A DNA stretch of 59,880 nucleotides from the sequence record LR025197.1. The stretch is one strand, 5' to 3'. The notes under the pieces were generated by a model. That model saw nothing but the letters and a program-made list of their open reading frames with translations, searched no databases and was not told the origin of the DNA. Position 1 is the stretch's first letter. Every line of letters starts with the position of its first letter. This stretch comes from Escherichia phage vB_Eco_SLUR75. Of the stretch, positions 1 through 59,880 are shown piece after piece. A program made the position numbers and the translations under genes.

Positions 1-127
1 CCCTTATCAGTCGCTACACGGGCGAGCCGTTAGCTGTGTTCCATGCAGCTTAAGCTATAACGCACACAGCGCCGCGCTAGCGAGCTAATGTACATAGGTA
101 ATGGTAATGCATTAGCTCGGGCGAAAC
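1..127. repeat. Terminal redundancy, identical to 59754..59880
   Basis: Exact 127-nt identity between window start and end. 127 is the maximal k-mer of common de Bruijn assemblers, so the simplest reading is a circular-contig overlap rather than a biological terminal repeat. Confidence 0.85.
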
Positions 128-3522: not shown

Positions 3523-3948
3523 ATGTCAGTAAATTTTGTCAAACAGCCAACTTTAAATACATGCGTTTCTGCGTGTTTGGCAATGATCCTTAATAAACCT
3601 GTCGAAAAGGTCATTGAGGAATTTCATAGTCGTTATTATAACAACTGGGAAATCACTATCAGCGAATATTTGACTAAAAACGGCGTCCCGCATCATTGTT
3701 CAGAAGGTGGTGGGCGTGAAACTTTGCATATGGGAGGTTTGTTCCTGTGCACGGTGCCAAGTCTTAATATTCCTGGCGCATTGCACCAGATTGTGATTGA
3801 TATGACAGATCACAAGTTTATTGTGCATGATCCAATTAAAGGATGGGAAGGTAAAAAGTTCTATGTTGGTCCGGATCAAGATCCTGAAGAGCCTGGAGCT
3901 TTTATCATTCATACTTGGGTCAAAGACGTTGAAATCCTGCCTTATTAA
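3523..3948 (+). CDS. Putative papain-fold cysteine peptidase, C39-like (141 aa)
   Basis: N-terminal QPTLNTCVSACLAMIL resembles the C39 catalytic Cys signature; candidate His in HKFIVHDP. Confidence 0.4.
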   Translation: MSVNFVKQPTLNTCVSACLAMILNKPVEKVIEEFHSRYYNNWEITISEYLTKNGVPHHCSEGGGRETLHMGGLFLCTVPSLNIPGALHQIVIDMTDHKFIVHDPIKGWEGKKFYVGPDQDPEEPGAFIIHTWVKDVEILPY

Positions 3949-4010
3949 TTTTCTTGCTATCACATAACCCTTCATTGTATTGTGTACCCATCGAATAAGA
4001 GGGGTACACA

Positions 4011-4196
4011 ATGACCAAACTATACGCCGGATTGTTTTTATTTGCGACGTTAATGTTCGCTGGGCTTTATACCTATACAGTAGTCGAACAAACTTCCACG
4101 GTTATCCGAATCTTTGCAAGTACAGGGCTTTGCATCTGTCTTATTCTATTTGTTTTATGCATTGTTATTATCCAAGACCAAAGGAAAGTTAAATGA
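4011..4196 (+). CDS. Small membrane protein (61 aa)
   Basis: RBS AAGAGGGG; two predicted TM helices. Confidence 0.5.
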   Translation: MTKLYAGLFLFATLMFAGLYTYTVVEQTSTVIRIFASTGLCICLILFVLCIVIIQDQRKVK

Positions 4197-5442: not shown

Positions 5443-5465
5443 CGGGGCGTTAGCCCCTTTTATTT
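5443..5465 (+). terminator. Rho-independent terminator
   Basis: GGGGC-gtta-GCCCC hairpin followed by TTTTATTT. Confidence 0.6.
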
Positions 5466-25085: not shown

Positions 25086-28000
25086 ATGGCAACTCGTTTA
25101 CGTGGTACTTTAGTTGATGGTTTGAATAAGCCTATTATCAACGCTACAGTTGCGCTTTTAGCTAAAGGAAACAGTCTTACCGTATTATCCGGCAGCGAAG
25201 CTATCTTTAAAACAAGTGCAACCGGAACTTATGATATTACAGTCCAGACAGGTTATTACAAGGTTATTATCGGTCCACAGGGCGTAGAGCCATATAAAGC
25301 TGGTGAAATTGCTATTTACGCGGATAGTAAAGAAGGTACGCTGAATAACTATTTAACTACATGGGCACCGGAAGAGCTAACTCCGGAAGTTATTACTCAG
25401 GTAAAAGATTTGGTTGCACAAGCTGAGACAGCTAAGAACGCTTCATCCACGTCTGCTACTAAATCCGAACAGGAGCGAGTTAAAGCAGAAGCTGCTGCTA
25501 AAAAAGCGGAAGACACTGCTAATGGTATGAAAGCCTCTATTGGCTTAACTACTGCCCCAAGACATGTTGCAAATATTACAGTAGAACCTACAGCATTCTT
25601 AGGCTTCATACGAATTGTACGATCTACCACAGTCGGTTATCCAGATATAGCTTCATCAGAAAACGTATTGGCTGGTTTTATTTCTGCTATGGACGGAACC
25701 CCTGGATATGTCGGGGTATTTGTTGGTGACTTCACCGGAACTGTATACACTTATCGTTGGACTAAGAATGTTGGCGCGGTATGGTGGAAACAAGTTAACT
25801 ACTCTACTGTCAACAGATATACCCAGCTTAACGCAGAAACTAATTTTACAAACCAATTGGGTAACGCCAAACTTCTTATTGACAATAATAAAGTTTGGGG
25901 TGCTTATGATAACGACAATAAACGCTATATACCCCTTGCAATAGCTCAGGGTGGTACTGGCGCGGTAAATGTTAATGATGCTTTGGAAAACTTTGGGTTA
26001 GGTCGTAACTCCGCGCCACGTTTCAAACATCTTGATCTGGACAATGCATCAAATTCTACACAAGCAGCTTCTGGAATTCTAAACGGCTACCTCCGTGATT
26101 CTAGCGGTGTGCAAAGAACTAAGCATAGATTATATTCAGAAATTAAAAGCGATGGGAAAGCGTGGTTAACCATGCAGATCTATTCTGATGAATCTACGCA
26201 GAAGACTTTAGGTTATAACATTGACGGCGATTTCCAAATTGTACGTAATTTTATCGGGCAGTCCTTACAATTATCGGATTTAACCACAACTCATAAAAAT
26301 CTACAGATTGATAGATTTAAGCAGTTGTCCGCTGGAACAAGGGTCTACGGAGGTCCAGCCGATGAGCGATATTTTGAAGTTCATACCGGGGCCTGGGGTG
26401 TTTATAACGTAACAGAAAAGAAATGGATACCTTTAGCCATATCACAAGGTGGGACGGGAGCTGTTACAGTTGCGGACGCCAAGAAGAACCTTTTAATCCC
26501 GGACGGAGGTCTTGATTCGGCTACCCGTGTGGATAAACCCGCTGGAGCGGAAGATGCTAAGTATTATCCAATCATTATTAGCCAACCTAGCGGGTATGAT
26601 GGCACGTACCTAACAGAAATTGAAATGAGCACTCCCAGCAGAAGTGCTGCACAAAGTCCTAACTCTAACATCTTAAGAGCTTGGATTCGAAGCGCTGGAT
26701 GGAGCGATAAAGGTACTGTTGGCTTTGGGAATTTCTTTGCTTATGATAGTAAAGAGGTTGCAATTTTATGTATACGTGGCACATCTAGAGGTCAATATCC
26801 TCATAATGCTGTTTACGTAAAGGGCGATGCTTTCCCTGTTTATATTAGGAAGACTGTTGGATCCACAATTACAGTTCCCACTTCTGACTGGTCTGCAGAT
26901 CCAAATGCGTCAGATAAGTGTGTTTATAAATGGGGCATCACAGGCGATTTAGATGGTATTGGTGATGAATATGGGTGTCGAAATATACTAAACTTTGTCA
27001 AAGGTTTGAACGGATTTTATTGTAACGACTATTTCCGTGATGCTGGAGGGAATGCTTATCTTAAGGATGGGATGAATTATGGAGGTGATATAAAATTACA
27101 ACTCCGTAAATTGGAAATAAACGGTAATCTTACCGCAGGGAACGCTATAACTGCTTTCGGTCCTACTGTAGCAAATAATACATTTGTATCACAGTTAACA
27201 AATGCGGATTCTAGTCAAGCATTGCATCAAAGCGAGTTTAGAGCTGGGGAAAGCGGTGGGCAAATTGTTGTTCGGGATATGTCAGCAGTAGCCAATCATA
27301 AATTCTTTAACTTTAATCTAGACGGAAGCTTCAGTCCGCCAAACGGATTATTGTCTTCTACTGGTGTGGATTGGAACAGTCAAATTAATACCGTCAATAA
27401 GTTCTATGGAATTGCCGGACAAGTTAACTCAGCAGAAAACAATGTTGTTTACGGGGGCATTCACGTAGGTTTTAGCGGTAATTATGCATTTCAACTAGCT
27501 GGTAGAAATAACAAAGCAAGTTTTCGTACATTTGAAGCAGGCACACCTGGACCTTGGATGCGTCTTATTACTGATCAGTATGCAGACTTCAAAGTACCAA
27601 TTTTTGCTAACAAGAATGGTGAAGCTATAACCATTAAATCGACAGTAGATGACAACTCTGAATCTGGATATATCGCTGGGAGGAATAACGCTAATACCCG
27701 TTTGTGGTATATAGGGAAGTCCGGACCTCAAGAAACTGTGGTTATCCGTAATGATATGAATGGAAACCAAATACTCTTAAGGGACGGTGCAGGCGATATA
27801 AGCTTGGATACAAAAGACGGGAACAAAGTTGTATTTGCAAAAGCTTCCAACTTTAGACTTGTTAATAGTAATGGAAAATATACAAGGTTAGTAACATCAG
27901 GAAGTTCAACTCATGCAATTAGCATGGACAACTGGGGTACAAGCGCAAGACCTACTGTGTTCGAATGTAAGTATGAAGACTATAGCACTTCTGCTAACGT

Positions 28001-58545: not shown

Positions 58546-58758
58546 TCACTTAATTTGTACTAAATCGTATTCCTTGTAGATGTCGCTAATGTACATATCG
58601 AACTGGCCCATTAAGAAGATTTCGGCCTCCTCCCAGCTTGGGGCAGATACATAACCAGCTATTTTACCGGACGCGAGTTCCACTAATTTGAATTCCATGA
58701 TGTAACCCTTAATGTGGTTAAGCAGTATTGCTTTGTTGAAGTAATAATAGCCTTGCAT
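58546..58758 (-). CDS. Hypothetical protein (70 aa)
   Basis: First gene of the reverse arm. Confidence 0.45.
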   Translation of the reverse strand: MQGYYYFNKAILLNHIKGYIMEFKLVELASGKIAGYVSAPSWEEAEIFLMGQFDMYISDIYKEYDLVQIK

Positions 58759-59376
58759 CGTGATATTGAATAGGCCAAAAGTGCTATTTTAGAATTGTTT
58801 TGTATCTATAGTAGTACACATGCAGCTACGTAAAAAGTTGGCGCCAACAATACTGCAAACGATATAGATTTTGTGTGCGTCTTCCATAGTGCGGATAACG
58901 TCTATTATGTTAAATAGCTAAGTTGTTGATTTATGGTATGCCCTGCAATGCATTGGATAGTTAAGTGGTCTAAGCTATTGTTTTAAAAGGAGTTAAAATT
59001 TTGCTGTCTGCCAGCTGTAAAACGTTATGTCATTTACTGACATAAAATGTTGTCACCGAAATAGCACGTTTGGCCTAGACACAGATCAGGTCATGCGGTA
59101 CTATATAGTCAAAGGAAAGGGAAGCAGAAGTTGCAAAGTACCAATCCCGAGTAGTAAAGGTTAGGGAAAGCTGAATAGCTAAAGTACCTAACAGGTAGTC
59201 GGAAGGTGAATCGTCCGGATGAAAAAGGCCGGCAAGTGTTGAGACAAGGGCACGTTGAGTAACTCCCGAACAGGGGGCCTCCAAGACACCTTCTCCGGTC
59301 CCGCGGGATCCGGGACCTTCCGGGACTACCAACCAAAGAAGCAACAAAATAGTAGACAAAGCGAGAGGTAGGTATC
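58759..59376. promoter_or_regulatory. Divergent control region between the two arms
   Basis: About 620 bp without convincing ORFs: AT-rich proximal part, then purine-rich GC-rich segment with hairpin GGTCCCGCGGGATCCGGGACC. Confidence 0.45.
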
Positions 59377-59520
59377 ATGGTCCGCAAATACACGCTTACA
59401 CGCGCACAGCACGCGTTATTATTGCAGGTCATGCGCATGGAGTACGAAGAGACTACATGGGCGCAAGCTATGCAGACAGGGCGCGAGTTCTACGCGCAAC
59501 TAATAGCACAAAATGCCTAG
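59377..59520 (+). CDS. Candidate small ORF (47 aa)
   Basis: ATG preceded by GAGAGGTAGG; below the ORF-track size cutoff. Confidence 0.3.
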   Translation: MVRKYTLTRAQHALLLQVMRMEYEETTWAQAMQTGREFYAQLIAQNA

Positions 59521-59578
59521 ACAACATGATCGGTCTGGTGGATACTACACACATCAACCAAACAACGGGGTAAACAAA

Positions 59579-59806
59579 ATGCGTAGTTTCAAATGTGTAA
59601 GCGTAAATGCTACTGGTAACGGTCTGTTCACGGCAGGTAATGTATATGACTTCAACATGGAAAGTTATAAAGACACAACGCTTACAGGTGTAATGTTCGG
59701 TGGCGCTCGTGTCGTTCGCTGCCATTTAAACAAGAACACGGAAAATGAATATACCCTTATCAGTCGCTACACGGGCGAGCCGTTAGCTGTGTTCCATGCA
59801 GCTTAA
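59579..59806 (+). CDS. Hypothetical protein spanning the terminal-repeat junction (75 aa)
   Basis: ATG at M23 of track ORF 59513..59806; its last 53 nt lie inside the 127-nt repeat, so a partial copy occupies window positions 1..53. Confidence 0.4.
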   Translation: MRSFKCVSVNATGNGLFTAGNVYDFNMESYKDTTLTGVMFGGARVVRCHLNKNTENEYTLISRYTGEPLAVFHAA

Positions 59807-59880
59807 GCTATAACGCACACAGCGCCGCGCTAGCGAGCTAATGTACATAGGTAATGGTAATGCATTAGCTCGGGCGAAAC
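59754..59880. repeat. Terminal redundancy, identical to 1..127
   Basis: Same 127-nt sequence as the window start. Confidence 0.85.

Follow-up and report, generated by a model that had tools for sequence, protein, structure and literature searches.

What lies in the interval where the two arms of the Escherichia phage vB_Eco_SLUR75 genome diverge, and does it encode a structured leader that controls the genes beyond it? The window that we analysed, 59,880 nucleotides of sequence record LR025197.1, represents a Seuratvirus genome in full, and its final 127 nt repeat the first 127 nt as a circular-assembly overlap. Minus-strand open reading frames (ORFs) extend up to 58758 and plus-strand ORFs start at 59377, which bears out the divergence described in the first-pass annotation and leaves 58759-59376 as a genuine divergent intergenic region, AT-rich on the left and purine-rich on the right. 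The annotation of phage WildeMaa has a shorter minus-strand start, at 58698. Both compositional claims made for the region also hold, with 36% GC at 58759-59075 against 44.7% for the window, and 61% purine on the + strand and 52.6% GC across the element at 59107-59336. Purine content reaches 63% in 230-nt segments at 59041-59061, ~2.6 SD over the window mean of 50%, and is higher in the whole window only around 19.1-19.2 kb. The AT-rich left part (58759-59075, assigned to neither strand) contains leftward promoter-like pieces and shares two interleaved inverted repeats with the rightward promoter (58771-89 with 59059-77, and 58799-813 with 59099-113); it is variable among Seuratviruses and lies outside the RNA family described here.

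Sequence comparison indicates that 59111-59330 on the + strand encodes a structured RNA of ~220 nt, composed of a 5′ domain and a closed 3′ domain, which is one copy of a conserved, covarying family. A covariance model of the 5′ domain has one match only in the window, within 59111-59330 (68.7 bits, E = 6e-14). A weak match at 27565-27639 (18 bits), inside a tail-fibre gene, was treated as chance and rejected as a second copy. A promoter scan places a rightward sigma70-type promoter at 59076-59104 (+), with a −35 box TAGACA (59076-81), a spacer of 17 nt and a −10 box TACTAT (59099-104), and this promoter is kept in WildeMaa, SA80RD and Seurat. The element begins within a few bases of the predicted transcription start (~59110-59112), with its first hairpin only 1–3 nt from it, and the segment from ~59120 to 59365 stands where Seurat has a protein gene. 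Beyond the RNA, an A-rich spacer (59331-59376, +) carries GAGAGG, the Shine-Dalgarno (SD) sequence of a 47-codon ORF at 59377-59520 (+) that is the first gene on the rightward arm. The coordinates first given for this ORF were exact and it is a real gene, matching phrog_37795 (E = 8e-32) and with homologues in Seurat gp68, SA80RD_76 and bas23_0078, but it does not directly precede the junction-spanning gene as had been supposed: a 97-codon ORF (59513-59806) comes between, and the junction gene starts at 59841. No terminator separates the structured RNA from the genes of the rightward arm, beginning with the 47-codon ORF.

In the 5′ domain two hairpins stand in tandem, both containing a GAA//AGUA internal loop and, above it, a short inner hairpin with a capping loop. 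Unit 1 (59112-59149, +; alignment A3 and pair counts) has an outer stem of 59114-20 with 59141-47, followed inwards by GAA (59121-23), the inner hairpin GCA[GAAGU]UGC (59124-34) and AAAGUA (59135-40). Its inner stem is 100% paired, with GCA/UGC replaced by GUG/CAC in some copies, while the outer stem is irregular and 72% paired, with both-side changes at 9/9 pairs. Unit 2 (59160-59192, +; pair counts) is closed by GUUAGG (59160-65) with CCUAAC (59187-92), which are 92.7% paired, and contains GAA (59166-68), AGCU[GAAU]AGCU (59169-80; inner stem 94.9% paired) and AAAGUA (59181-86); all 10 of its 10 pairs have changed on both sides. In 20 sequences the columns of GAA and AAGUA show little or no variation and conform to the loop E/sarcin-ricin consensus, and the stems that flank the loops covary on both sides, the three-dimensional motif itself being putative and seen as a sequence consensus. 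The pairs were counted in an alignment made without structure information, with slid partners and shuffles as controls. Across the 5′ domain they are 85.9% paired, compared with 26–41% when partners are slid, and 21 of the 22 pairs show both-side changes, a result matched by none of 500 shuffles.

The 3′ domain comprises a closing helix (P0), the hairpins Pa and Pb, a proposed pseudoknot, the boxB-like hairpin Pd and a terminal hairpin. The 5′ strand of P0 (59194-59207, +) is made up of GGUAGUC (59194-200) and the extension CGGAAGGU (59200-207), and the 3′ strand (59315-59330, +) of ACCUUCCG (59315-22) and GACUACC (59324-30); GGUAGUC pairs with 59324-330 and the extension with 59315-322. As an automated search for the closing helix was noisy with G-U allowed, it was replaced by an anchored comparison. 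In this constructed alignment, in which extracted strands were joined through artificial spacers, P0 is 91% paired with both-side changes in 6/7 pairs and covaries across all 3′ domain types; neither P0 nor the terminal hairpin is confidently assigned in the Rtp and A7_1 groups. P0 is also present in the single-sequence MFE fold. Pa (59213-59233, +) pairs G59213 and CCGG (59215-18) with CCGG (59229-32) and C59233 around a conserved loop, AUGAAAAAGG (59219-28), of the family form AUGAAAnAGG; it is 100% paired, and 3/5 pairs have changed on both sides (CCGG/CCGG, CCAG/CUGG, CUAG/CUAG). Pb (59236-59253, +), formed by GUG (59236-38) with CAC (59251-53), is likewise 100% paired, with 3/3 pairs changed on both sides (GUG/CAC, ACG/CGU, AGG/CCU, CGG/CCG, AGA/UCU). 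Its loop, UUGAGACAAGG, contributes GAG (59241-43) and AAGG (59246-49) to the proposed pseudoknot as its 5′ half, the 3′ half being CCUUCUC (59289-59295, +), which is invariant in types A and A′. Pairing of the Pb loop with CCUUCUC is probable, and its partners are invariant and so give no covariation signal. Finally, Pc (59254-59287, +; 59254-59 with 59279-81 and 59285-87) encloses Pd, a 5-bp stem (59263-67/59273-77, +) with the pentaloop GAACA (59268-72); this arm is an insert found only in A′ type copies. Pd is 87% paired and has both-side changes in 2 pairs; its GNRA-like GAAnA loop, boxB-like in shape, varies at position 4 only (GAAAA, GAACA, GAAUA).

It is this covariation in relatives, and not folding energy (z = −0.4 to −0.5), that supports a structured RNA: neither strand folds better than shuffled sequence, and on thermodynamics alone the region would have been dismissed. 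G-U pairs outnumber A-C pairs by 59 to 22 in the family, which points to RNA on the + strand. The same excess, together with wobble substitutions in WildeMaa that fit a + strand RNA, argues against the locus being a DNA-level element (a primase site, operator or recombination site) or a reverse-strand coding sequence, as does the strict coupling to an upstream promoter. For a G4-type single-strand initiation site, where primase would prime on a cluster of hairpins in ssDNA, these two arguments are indirect. Such an explanation would accommodate the presence of the element on the viral strand of an ssDNA microvirus and the overlapping reverse-strand ORFs of 94 and 109 codons. These ORFs (59075-59359 and 59109-59438) were rejected as coding: they match no PHROG family and are broken by frame-breaking indels, both between near-identical phages (the window and WildeMaa, 97–98% identical, differ by 1- and 2-nt indels) and within the most conserved core, which contains a 1-nt indel. 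We consider a DNA-level or coding role to have almost nothing left to recommend it.

The first-pass annotation had suggested a possible long structured 5′ leader or small RNA here, controlling the early-to-middle switch, and had pointed to a GC hairpin (GGTCCCGCGGGATCCGGGACC) at about 59288-59308. A long structured RNA that opens the rightward + strand transcript is upheld; the GC hairpin as its organising core is not, being a lineage-specific form of the terminal hairpin of the family. The hairpin does exist, 9 nt away at 59297-59317, and the terminal hairpin as a whole (59295-59317, +) has two possible registers, GGUCCCG/CGGGACC (59297-59317) or CCGG (59295-98) with CCGG (59310-13), the latter homologous to SA80RD. 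Nor is it as atypical of the genome as had been thought: the window contains four perfect 7-bp GC-rich hairpins against 0.5 expected from Markov simulations, so that this one is unusual and not unique. Lack of conservation in relatives had been put forward as refuting the reading, and for the sequence of the hairpin this is literally the case. Its position is conserved and its sequence is not, SA80RD having CCGA[CUUUACGAAGA]UCGG in its place. Among the copies with a readable terminal hairpin (SA80RD and types A and B), a covarying, paired hairpin is kept there; the A7_1 group showed no clear one. Two substitutions in WildeMaa convert G-C pairs of the GC hairpin to G-U pairs.

Could the GC hairpin nevertheless attenuate or terminate transcription, within a leader timing the early-to-middle switch? 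It is real, commoner in the window than the Markov expectation and placed between promoter and first gene. However, it lacks a U-run, being followed by UUCCGGGACUACC, which argues against an intrinsic terminator at 59297-59317, and none was found there in the terminator scan. Its sequence is replaced in SA80RD, and Seurat dispenses with the whole element yet has the same promoter and genes, a protein gene standing in its place. The rightward arm, moreover, leads from small early genes to structural genes, with the replication genes on the other arm. We find no link to such a switch, and attenuation at this hairpin seems to us highly improbable.

The RNA fits no family in Rfam 15, the covariance scan that had been suggested for it: the whole window gave no match at the gathering threshold, 58600-59880 at E ≤ 10 matched only an irrelevant scaRNA model, and eight related loci gave no match at E ≤ 1. 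ARAGORN found no tRNA or tmRNA genes in the window. The element has no match in E. coli chromosomes; a pattern scan of JGI metagenomes returned chance matches only, in unrelated sequence, and of the pattern scans of GTDB genomes one gave none and the other 25 chance matches that lack unit 2. Scans of IMG/VR recovered only copies of known isolates and three uncultivated phage contigs. As no description of the RNA was found in the searchable literature, by topic or by exact sequence strings, the family is apparently undescribed. Its compact pseudoknotted domain, invariant junction bases, several structural subtypes and sporadic, mobile, phage-associated distribution would be compatible with a self-cleaving ribozyme of a new kind, or a processing module, by which the leader is cut back to a defined 5′ end. 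This idea, drawn by analogy, which is its sole basis, we rate as very doubtful, given that known ribozyme models give no match and no conserved cleavage-site signature was identified.

The element is found in ~43 phages of seven lineages (Seuratvirus, Drexlerviridae, Vequintavirinae, Molineuxvirinae, Gordonclarkvirinae, Grimontviridae and the microvirus NC29), with one copy per genome. The window and WildeMaa are 96.9% identical over 58700-59600 and 97.6% over 59090-59376, and the core remains 85–91% identical between unrelated families, in Rtp-like (Drexlerviridae) and rV5-like (Vequintavirinae) phages; the copies in Molineuxvirinae, Gordonclarkvirinae, Grimontviridae and NC29 are more diverged. 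Close relatives, Seurat among them, are without it, and where Seurat has a protein gene in the slot other Seuratviruses have other cargo. Such sporadic spread combined with high identity across families implies recent transfer and, as judged from these sequences, the RNA family is horizontally mobile among enterobacterial phages of at least seven unrelated groups. Each copy stands immediately after a sigma70-type promoter and reads in the same direction as the next gene, whose start codon usually follows after 40–75 nt with no U-run terminator after the element, and these downstream genes are unrelated between families. Rtp-like and rV5-like phages have a second promoter after the element, whose initial transcribed sequence matches that of the first. 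SU7 and PAS59 have the 5′ domain alone, ahead of the gene that follows the full element in XT32 and Bas89; in SE131 and 7-11 the 5′ domain precedes >1 kb without an annotated CDS. In the 6.3-kb ssDNA microvirus NC29, the element forms the leader of gene D, on the viral strand.

That the downstream genes are unrelated suggests a function that is not gene-specific, which argues against the closed 3′ domain as the aptamer of a riboswitch-like or protein-responsive translational switch. In such a switch GGAAGGUG (59201-08) would pair either with CACCUUCU (59287-94) or with ACCUUCCG, and these alternatives, together with a 7-codon mini-ORF (59219-59242), would set expression of the downstream ORF. 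Mutually exclusive pairings of 8–9 bp are indeed present, among them an alternative 8-bp pairing of GGAAGGUG with the anti-SD-like CCUUCUC; the closing helix, proposed pseudoknot and highly conserved unpaired bases would suit an aptamer, and types A and A′ repeatedly have an SD-like AAGG with AUG...UGA after it. Yet the alternative pairing occurs only in Seuratvirus copies, the A7_1 group has no SD-like motif, the Era103 frame ends after only 2 codons and an AUG is missing from type B. Conserved pairing to the downstream SD was not found, nor any Rfam riboswitch match at the permissive threshold, and we think a switch improbable.

The function that we infer, and prefer if somewhat short of an even bet, is that of a portable leader acting in cis, through which a host factor would be engaged to favour elongation or stability. 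We tentatively propose the following mechanism. The RNA would fold during its own transcription and act in cis as a portable leader module, its near-invariant internal loops binding a factor shared by all Enterobacteriaceae hosts, the transcription elongation complex being the likeliest, as with the put or nut/rrn leaders. Transcription of the early operon would become more processive, and the 5′-terminal hairpin would at the same time guard the transcript against 5′-end-dependent decay. The module would thus be an optional booster and no essential control element; Seurat and others, with the same promoter and downstream genes but no RNA, show that the operon does not need it. The directly upstream promoter in every copy, the first hairpin so near the predicted transcription start, the co-directional gene with its nearby start codon, the missing U-run and downstream genes that differ from family to family are all consistent with this model, as are the boxB-shaped Pd, a good intrinsic terminator at 5444-5457, downstream on the same arm and ahead of the late genes, and the 5′ domain of SU7 and PAS59 ahead of the same gene. 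Furthermore, CGCUCUUUAACAA follows the element in SP6-like phages, and the same sequence occurs in the T7 leader (CGCTCTTTAACAATCTGG, 811-828); we take it to be the rrn-type boxA antitermination signal. T7 has boxA and lacks the element, and boxA follows the element in type A relatives, whereas no boxA (GCUCUUUAACAA-like, ≤2 mismatches) is found in or near 59100-59400 of the window. Against a cis-acting leader stand the relatives that manage without the RNA, the missing boxA of the window copy, the lack of similarity to HK022 putL and putR, the second promoter of Rtp-like and rV5-like phages, which serves the downstream genes, a folding energy no better than shuffled, and the sporadic, cross-family distribution, equally expected of an accessory trans-acting payload.

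Comparison with known leaders yields partial likenesses. Pd shares with the boxB of lambda nut a 5-bp stem and a GAAnA pentaloop varying at position 4, a likeness of shape only, which by itself does not imply binding of N or NusA; no N-like arginine-rich protein is evident, Pd is missing from types A, B and 0, and nothing in nut sites corresponds to the conserved bulk of the RNA. HK022 put is a phage-encoded RNA of two stem-loops in the early transcript that needs no phage protein (PMC9378689). Like put, the element is phage-encoded and promoter-proximal in the nascent early transcript, has a two-stem-loop module of ~70–80 nt and is present in only some relatives, and the layout of promoter (59076-59104) and two hairpins (59112-59192) is put-like by analogy. 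Homology to put was rejected, as no sequence or structure is shared: putL and putR (NC_002166) have no motif in common with the element, the 5′ domain model finds no match in the HK022 locus, and put lacks the GAA//AGUA loops and the 3′ domain and is confined to lambdoid phages. Put, a processive antiterminator made of RNA alone, contacts RNA polymerase at the β′ zinc-binding region and overrides terminators unaided by protein factors; for the element, both polymerase binding and antitermination are putative and suggested by analogy. With 5′ stabiliser hairpins, such as that of the ompA 5′ UTR, it shares a hairpin 1–3 nt from the predicted 5′ end and a place in the 5′ UTR of unrelated genes. 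Stabilisers, however, need no conserved sequence, whereas the internal and hairpin loops of the element are near-invariant across seven lineages, which implies a specific partner.

The main rival to the cis-acting leader is a trans-acting accessory RNA, an ‘RNA moron’ consisting of a promoter and an RNA payload, in which a stable RNA (the 5′ fragment or the full transcript) would bind or decoy a host factor, for example a defence or host-takeover factor, independently of the downstream genes. This would account for the accessory slot with its exchangeable cargo, for the near-identical copies sporadically distributed over unrelated families, and for an own promoter followed by a second one with the same initial transcribed sequence in the Rtp-like and rV5-like phages. 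The 3′ domain is closed by P0 without conserved pairing to downstream sequence, the >1 kb of SE131 and 7-11 has no annotated CDS, and GAA//AGUA loops are typical protein-binding modules. On the other hand, no terminator sets a 3′ end, the RNA always runs in the direction of a start codon that it usually precedes by 40–75 nt, it serves as the gene D leader in a 6.3-kb microvirus, and no target is known. We regard action in trans as possible, if rather less credible than action in cis. Morons and T4 PeSL-type cassettes are similar in being promoter-linked units between resident genes that unrelated phages exchange, and the flanking of the element by two copies of the promoter in Rtp-like and rV5-like phages recalls them; the cargo here is a structured RNA instead of a protein gene, with no closing terminator. 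GOLLD and ROOL are likewise conserved, covarying phage non-coding RNAs with no assigned function, but the element is far smaller, always promoter-proximal, restricted to virulent Enterobacteriaceae phages and represented by no Rfam model.

The RNA may still turn out to form a new family of a known kind, such as an antiterminator or stabiliser leader. There is some chance, though we would not count on it, that it represents a new class of mobile functional RNA, a promoter and RNA cassette that moves between dsDNA and ssDNA phages and acts on a conserved host machine as no described phage RNA does; candidates would be a trans-acting decoy or anti-defence RNA built on two sarcin-ricin-like loops, or a new ribozyme or aptamer. 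If real, this would be an undescribed, ornate RNA class in tractable model phages, carried by Bas23 (WildeMaa) and Bas89 of the BASEL collection, Rtp, Era103 and the microvirus NC29. Near-identical copies in unrelated families, placed at the first bases of an early transcript and dispensable in relatives, point to a portable and useful role in Enterobacteriaceae. Its partner may reveal a second, unrelated case after put of RNA-mediated control of RNA polymerase, a new RNA-based mechanism of host takeover or anti-defence, or a naturally occurring 5′ UTR expression module that can be transferred and put to use in engineering.

The first-pass annotation suspected that the rightward arm opens with a structured RNA. 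The anomaly is real and its general nature was correctly recognised, but it was pinned on the wrong feature and assigned a role, control of an early-to-middle switch, that is unsupported. Over 58700-59600 the sequence is 96.9% identical to that of Escherichia phage WildeMaa (Bas23; Queuovirinae, Seuratvirus), and other Seuratviruses match in part. The first 127 nt of the window (1-127) are identical to the last 127 (59754-59880), indicating a circular assembly with an overlap and a true genome of ~59,753 bp (~59.75 kb); the ORF beginning at 59841 is the same as that at 88-327. GC skew and the WildeMaa annotation define two divergent arms: in the leftward one small genes are followed by those for replication, and in the rightward one ~20 small genes lead into the terminase, head and tail genes. 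The arms diverge where they had been said to, minus-strand ORFs ending at 58758 and plus-strand ORFs beginning at 59377, and the reported composition also holds: the left part (58759-59075) has 36% GC against 44.7% overall, and the right part is 61-63% purine, ~2.6 SD over the window mean, with 52.6% GC. The 47-codon ORF is genuine (phrog_37795, E = 8e-32) and precedes the junction-spanning gene as described, though not directly, a 97-codon ORF coming between. Two interleaved inverted repeats (58771-58789 with 59059-59077, AAATAGCACnTTTGGCCTA; 58799-58813 with 59099-59113, TACTATAnAGnnCAAA) mirror pieces of the rightward promoter beside the leftward gene start. A AATAGCAC..TTT motif, also found upstream of both tandem promoters in Rtp-like phages, may represent a shared operator or UP-like element.

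Every copy of the element is immediately preceded by a sigma70-type promoter, here the rightward TAGACA-17-TACTAT (59076-59104, +), with which it is co-oriented. The RNA (all features +) begins with a 5' domain of two hairpins (59112-59149 and 59160-59192), each consisting of an outer stem, GAA, a short capped inner hairpin, (A)AAGUA and the returning outer stem; the internal loops, GAA opposite AGUA, match the loop-E (sarcin-ricin) consensus. The 3' domain is closed by helix P0 (GGUAGUC, 59194-200, with GACUACC, 59324-330), which in Seuratviruses is lengthened by pairing of CGGAAGGU (59200-07) to ACCUUCCG (59315-22). Within the domain lie Pa (59213-33, loop AUGAAAAAGG), Pb (59236-53), an inserted Pc/Pd arm (59254-87), in which Pd is a 5-bp stem with a GAAnA pentaloop, and a terminal hairpin (59295-59317). 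A pseudoknot is possible between the Pb loop, GAG(n)AAGG, and CCUUCUC (59289-95); since both partners are invariant it is only proposed, and a variable bulge (A, AC or C) fits it. Type A 3' domains, of SP6-like phages, have no Pc/Pd and are directly followed by CGCUCUUUAACAA, which we take to be boxA-like and which also occurs in the T7 early leader (811-828). Type A' unites the window group with those of Rtp and A7_1, copies of the Rtp group having a single 5' hairpin unit; type B (NC29, Bas89, XT32, FS2B) differs in its core but shares the GUAAGGACUC lead-in, P0 and the terminal hairpin; and type 0 (SU7, PAS59, SE131, 7-11) is the 5' domain alone.

Single-sequence folding is no better than for shuffled sequence (z = -0.4 to -0.5), although the MFE fold still finds the second 5' hairpin, P0, Pb, Pc and Pd, and it is the comparative evidence that establishes the structure. 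In a MAFFT alignment of 20 sequences, the 22 pairs of the 5' domain are 85.9% paired and 21 have changed on both sides; pairing is 26-41% when the strands are slid, and covariation is 0.66 versus at most 0.10 in controls (0/500 shuffles). Pa and Pb are 100% paired in the 16 sequences of alignment A4, with both-side changes in 3/5 and 3/3 pairs respectively, while Pd is 87% paired there with two such pairs. For P0, an alignment constructed from the anchored strands of 8 distinct variants gave 91% pairing (23-48% when slid) and both-side changes in 6/7 pairs. G-U pairs exceed A-C pairs (59 vs 22), and three WildeMaa substitutions, two in the GC hairpin and one in P0, each convert G-C to G-U, which identifies the folded molecule as plus-strand RNA. 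The reverse-strand ORFs were rejected as genes: they have no family match, and frame-breaking indels separate near-identical phages and also fall within the core. A DNA-level or coding explanation for the region we consider the most improbable of all.

The GC hairpin that had drawn attention is present at 59297-59317, 9 nt from its reported position. The window contains four perfect hairpins of this GC-rich, 7-bp kind (0.5 expected by simulation). The hairpin at 59297-59317 occupies the family's terminal-hairpin position, downstream of the CCUUCU element and ahead of the P0 3' strand; in SA80RD and in type A and B copies position and pairing are conserved there but sequence is not. The sister phage SA80RD has CCGA[CUUUACGAAGA]UCGG, its loop identical to that of NC29 and nearly so to that of Era103, and the stems of type A and B copies covary (CUCA/UGAG, CAUA/UAUG, CUAG/CUAG, ACGUAU/AUACGU); for the A7_1 group we could assign no clear hairpin there. 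As no U-run lies behind it, the hairpin is not a terminator, and we give a reading of it as an attenuator very little credence.

BLAST with 59090-59376 unexpectedly revealed a ~95-nt core, shared at 85-91% identity by phages from families unrelated to one another: Drexlerviridae (Rtp, ZL19, PH1062, BUCT-XGG-1) and Vequintavirinae (A7_1, A5-4, A73, UPEC06, LTH01), in which all copies are intergenic and unannotated. Pursuing weaker matches outward from these copies added Salmonella Moazamivirus phages (SE131, 7-11 and others), SP6-like Molineuxvirinae of Erwinia and Klebsiella (Era103, KL01, RCIP0053, F4M1D, K1-ULIP33, EamP-S2 and others), phiEco32-like Gordonclarkvirinae (Bas89, XT32, FS2B, SU7, PAS59 and others) and the 6.3-kb microvirus NC29, whose enlarged C-D intergenic region the element occupies, for a total of ~43 phages in seven lineages among 50,697 records. 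Scans found no copy in bacterial chromosomes and only chance matches in metagenomes. The window has a single copy (59107-59196, 68.7 bits, E = 6e-14, with R1, the covariance model of the 5' domain). The 5' domain model also gives a weak match within the gene for the lateral tail fibre (27565-27639, +; ~18 bits, E = 0.01-0.06); it recurs in WildeMaa (sequence L068, 21106-21180) and is probably chance. At the left end of Moazamivirus genomes, no CDS is annotated for more than 1 kb behind the 5' domain (SE131, 1150-2245), a stretch that may hold further non-coding RNAs.

Seurat lacks the element, as judged by model R1 and by comparison with the window. Homology between the two extends past the promoter as far as 59119 and picks up again at ~59366, and the 49-codon protein gene 67 of Seurat (gp67; sequence L002, 3441-3590) stands exactly in place of the RNA (59120-59365). 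Other Seuratviruses carry yet other cargo there, which defines a variable accessory slot directly behind the rightward promoter. In rV5-like (A7_1, 2360-2720) and Rtp-like (Rtp, 60-400) phages the element is flanked by two promoters in tandem whose initial transcribed sequences are nearly the same, an arrangement suggesting that recombination between promoter copies inserted it. HNH homing endonuclease genes adjoin the element or lie within 1 kb of it in several carriers (Era103, 822-1280; WildeMaa, sequence L001, 4444-4917; SA80RD, 3691-4173) and could contribute to its mobility; that of WildeMaa is seemingly absent from the window phage. Residence in an accessory slot, recent transfer between families, relatives that manage without it on the same promoter and genes, the second promoter behind it in Rtp-like and rV5-like phages and a self-contained 3' domain all count against a leader acting in cis and would suit an accessory RNA acting in trans, a possible but less probable reading. 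That the element is a new ribozyme seems highly unlikely.

The element's structure, its family, its coupling to a promoter, its co-orientation and its mobility are shown, and its function is inferred. We tentatively favour, at somewhat less than even confidence, a portable leader acting in cis. The internal loops are near-invariant across hosts from Escherichia to Erwinia, which argues for a specific, conserved partner; this would be the elongation complex, with protection of the 5' end as a by-product. The element lies at the extreme 5' end of the transcript with no terminator behind it, the next start codon is usually 40-75 nt away, and the genes downstream are unrelated from family to family. 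The boxA-like sequence directly after type A copies, the boxB-hairpin shape of Pd and a good intrinsic-terminator-like site farther along the rightward arm (GGGGCGTTAGCCCC then TTTTATTT; 5444-5457, +), where its small early genes give way to those for terminase, also count in favour of a cis role. A further such point is that in Gordonclarkvirinae the 5' domain alone heads the same gene that others express from the full element. A mini-ORF (59219-59242, AUG AAA AAG GCC GGC AAG UGU UGA) reaches from the loop of Pa to that of Pb with GGAAGGUG upstream; a start codon followed by UGA recurs at this position in type A and A' copies, not in type B, KL01 starting with GUG and Era103 stopping after two codons. 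A riboswitch-like switch combining alternative GGAAGGUG pairings with this seven-codon mini-ORF appears unlikely.

Among known systems, the layout is similar to that of HK022 put, which is promoter-proximal, has two stem-loops and needs no phage protein (PMC9378689), though the element shares no homology with put. With nut and rrn leaders it has in common a boxB-shaped hairpin and, for some relatives, an adjacent boxA, whereas the window copy is without boxA. The element has no match in Rfam 15, and searches of the accessible literature, exact sequence strings included, returned no description of it. The region appears to be one copy of a new, mobile and structurally elaborate phage RNA family, whose function is directly testable in BASEL phages.
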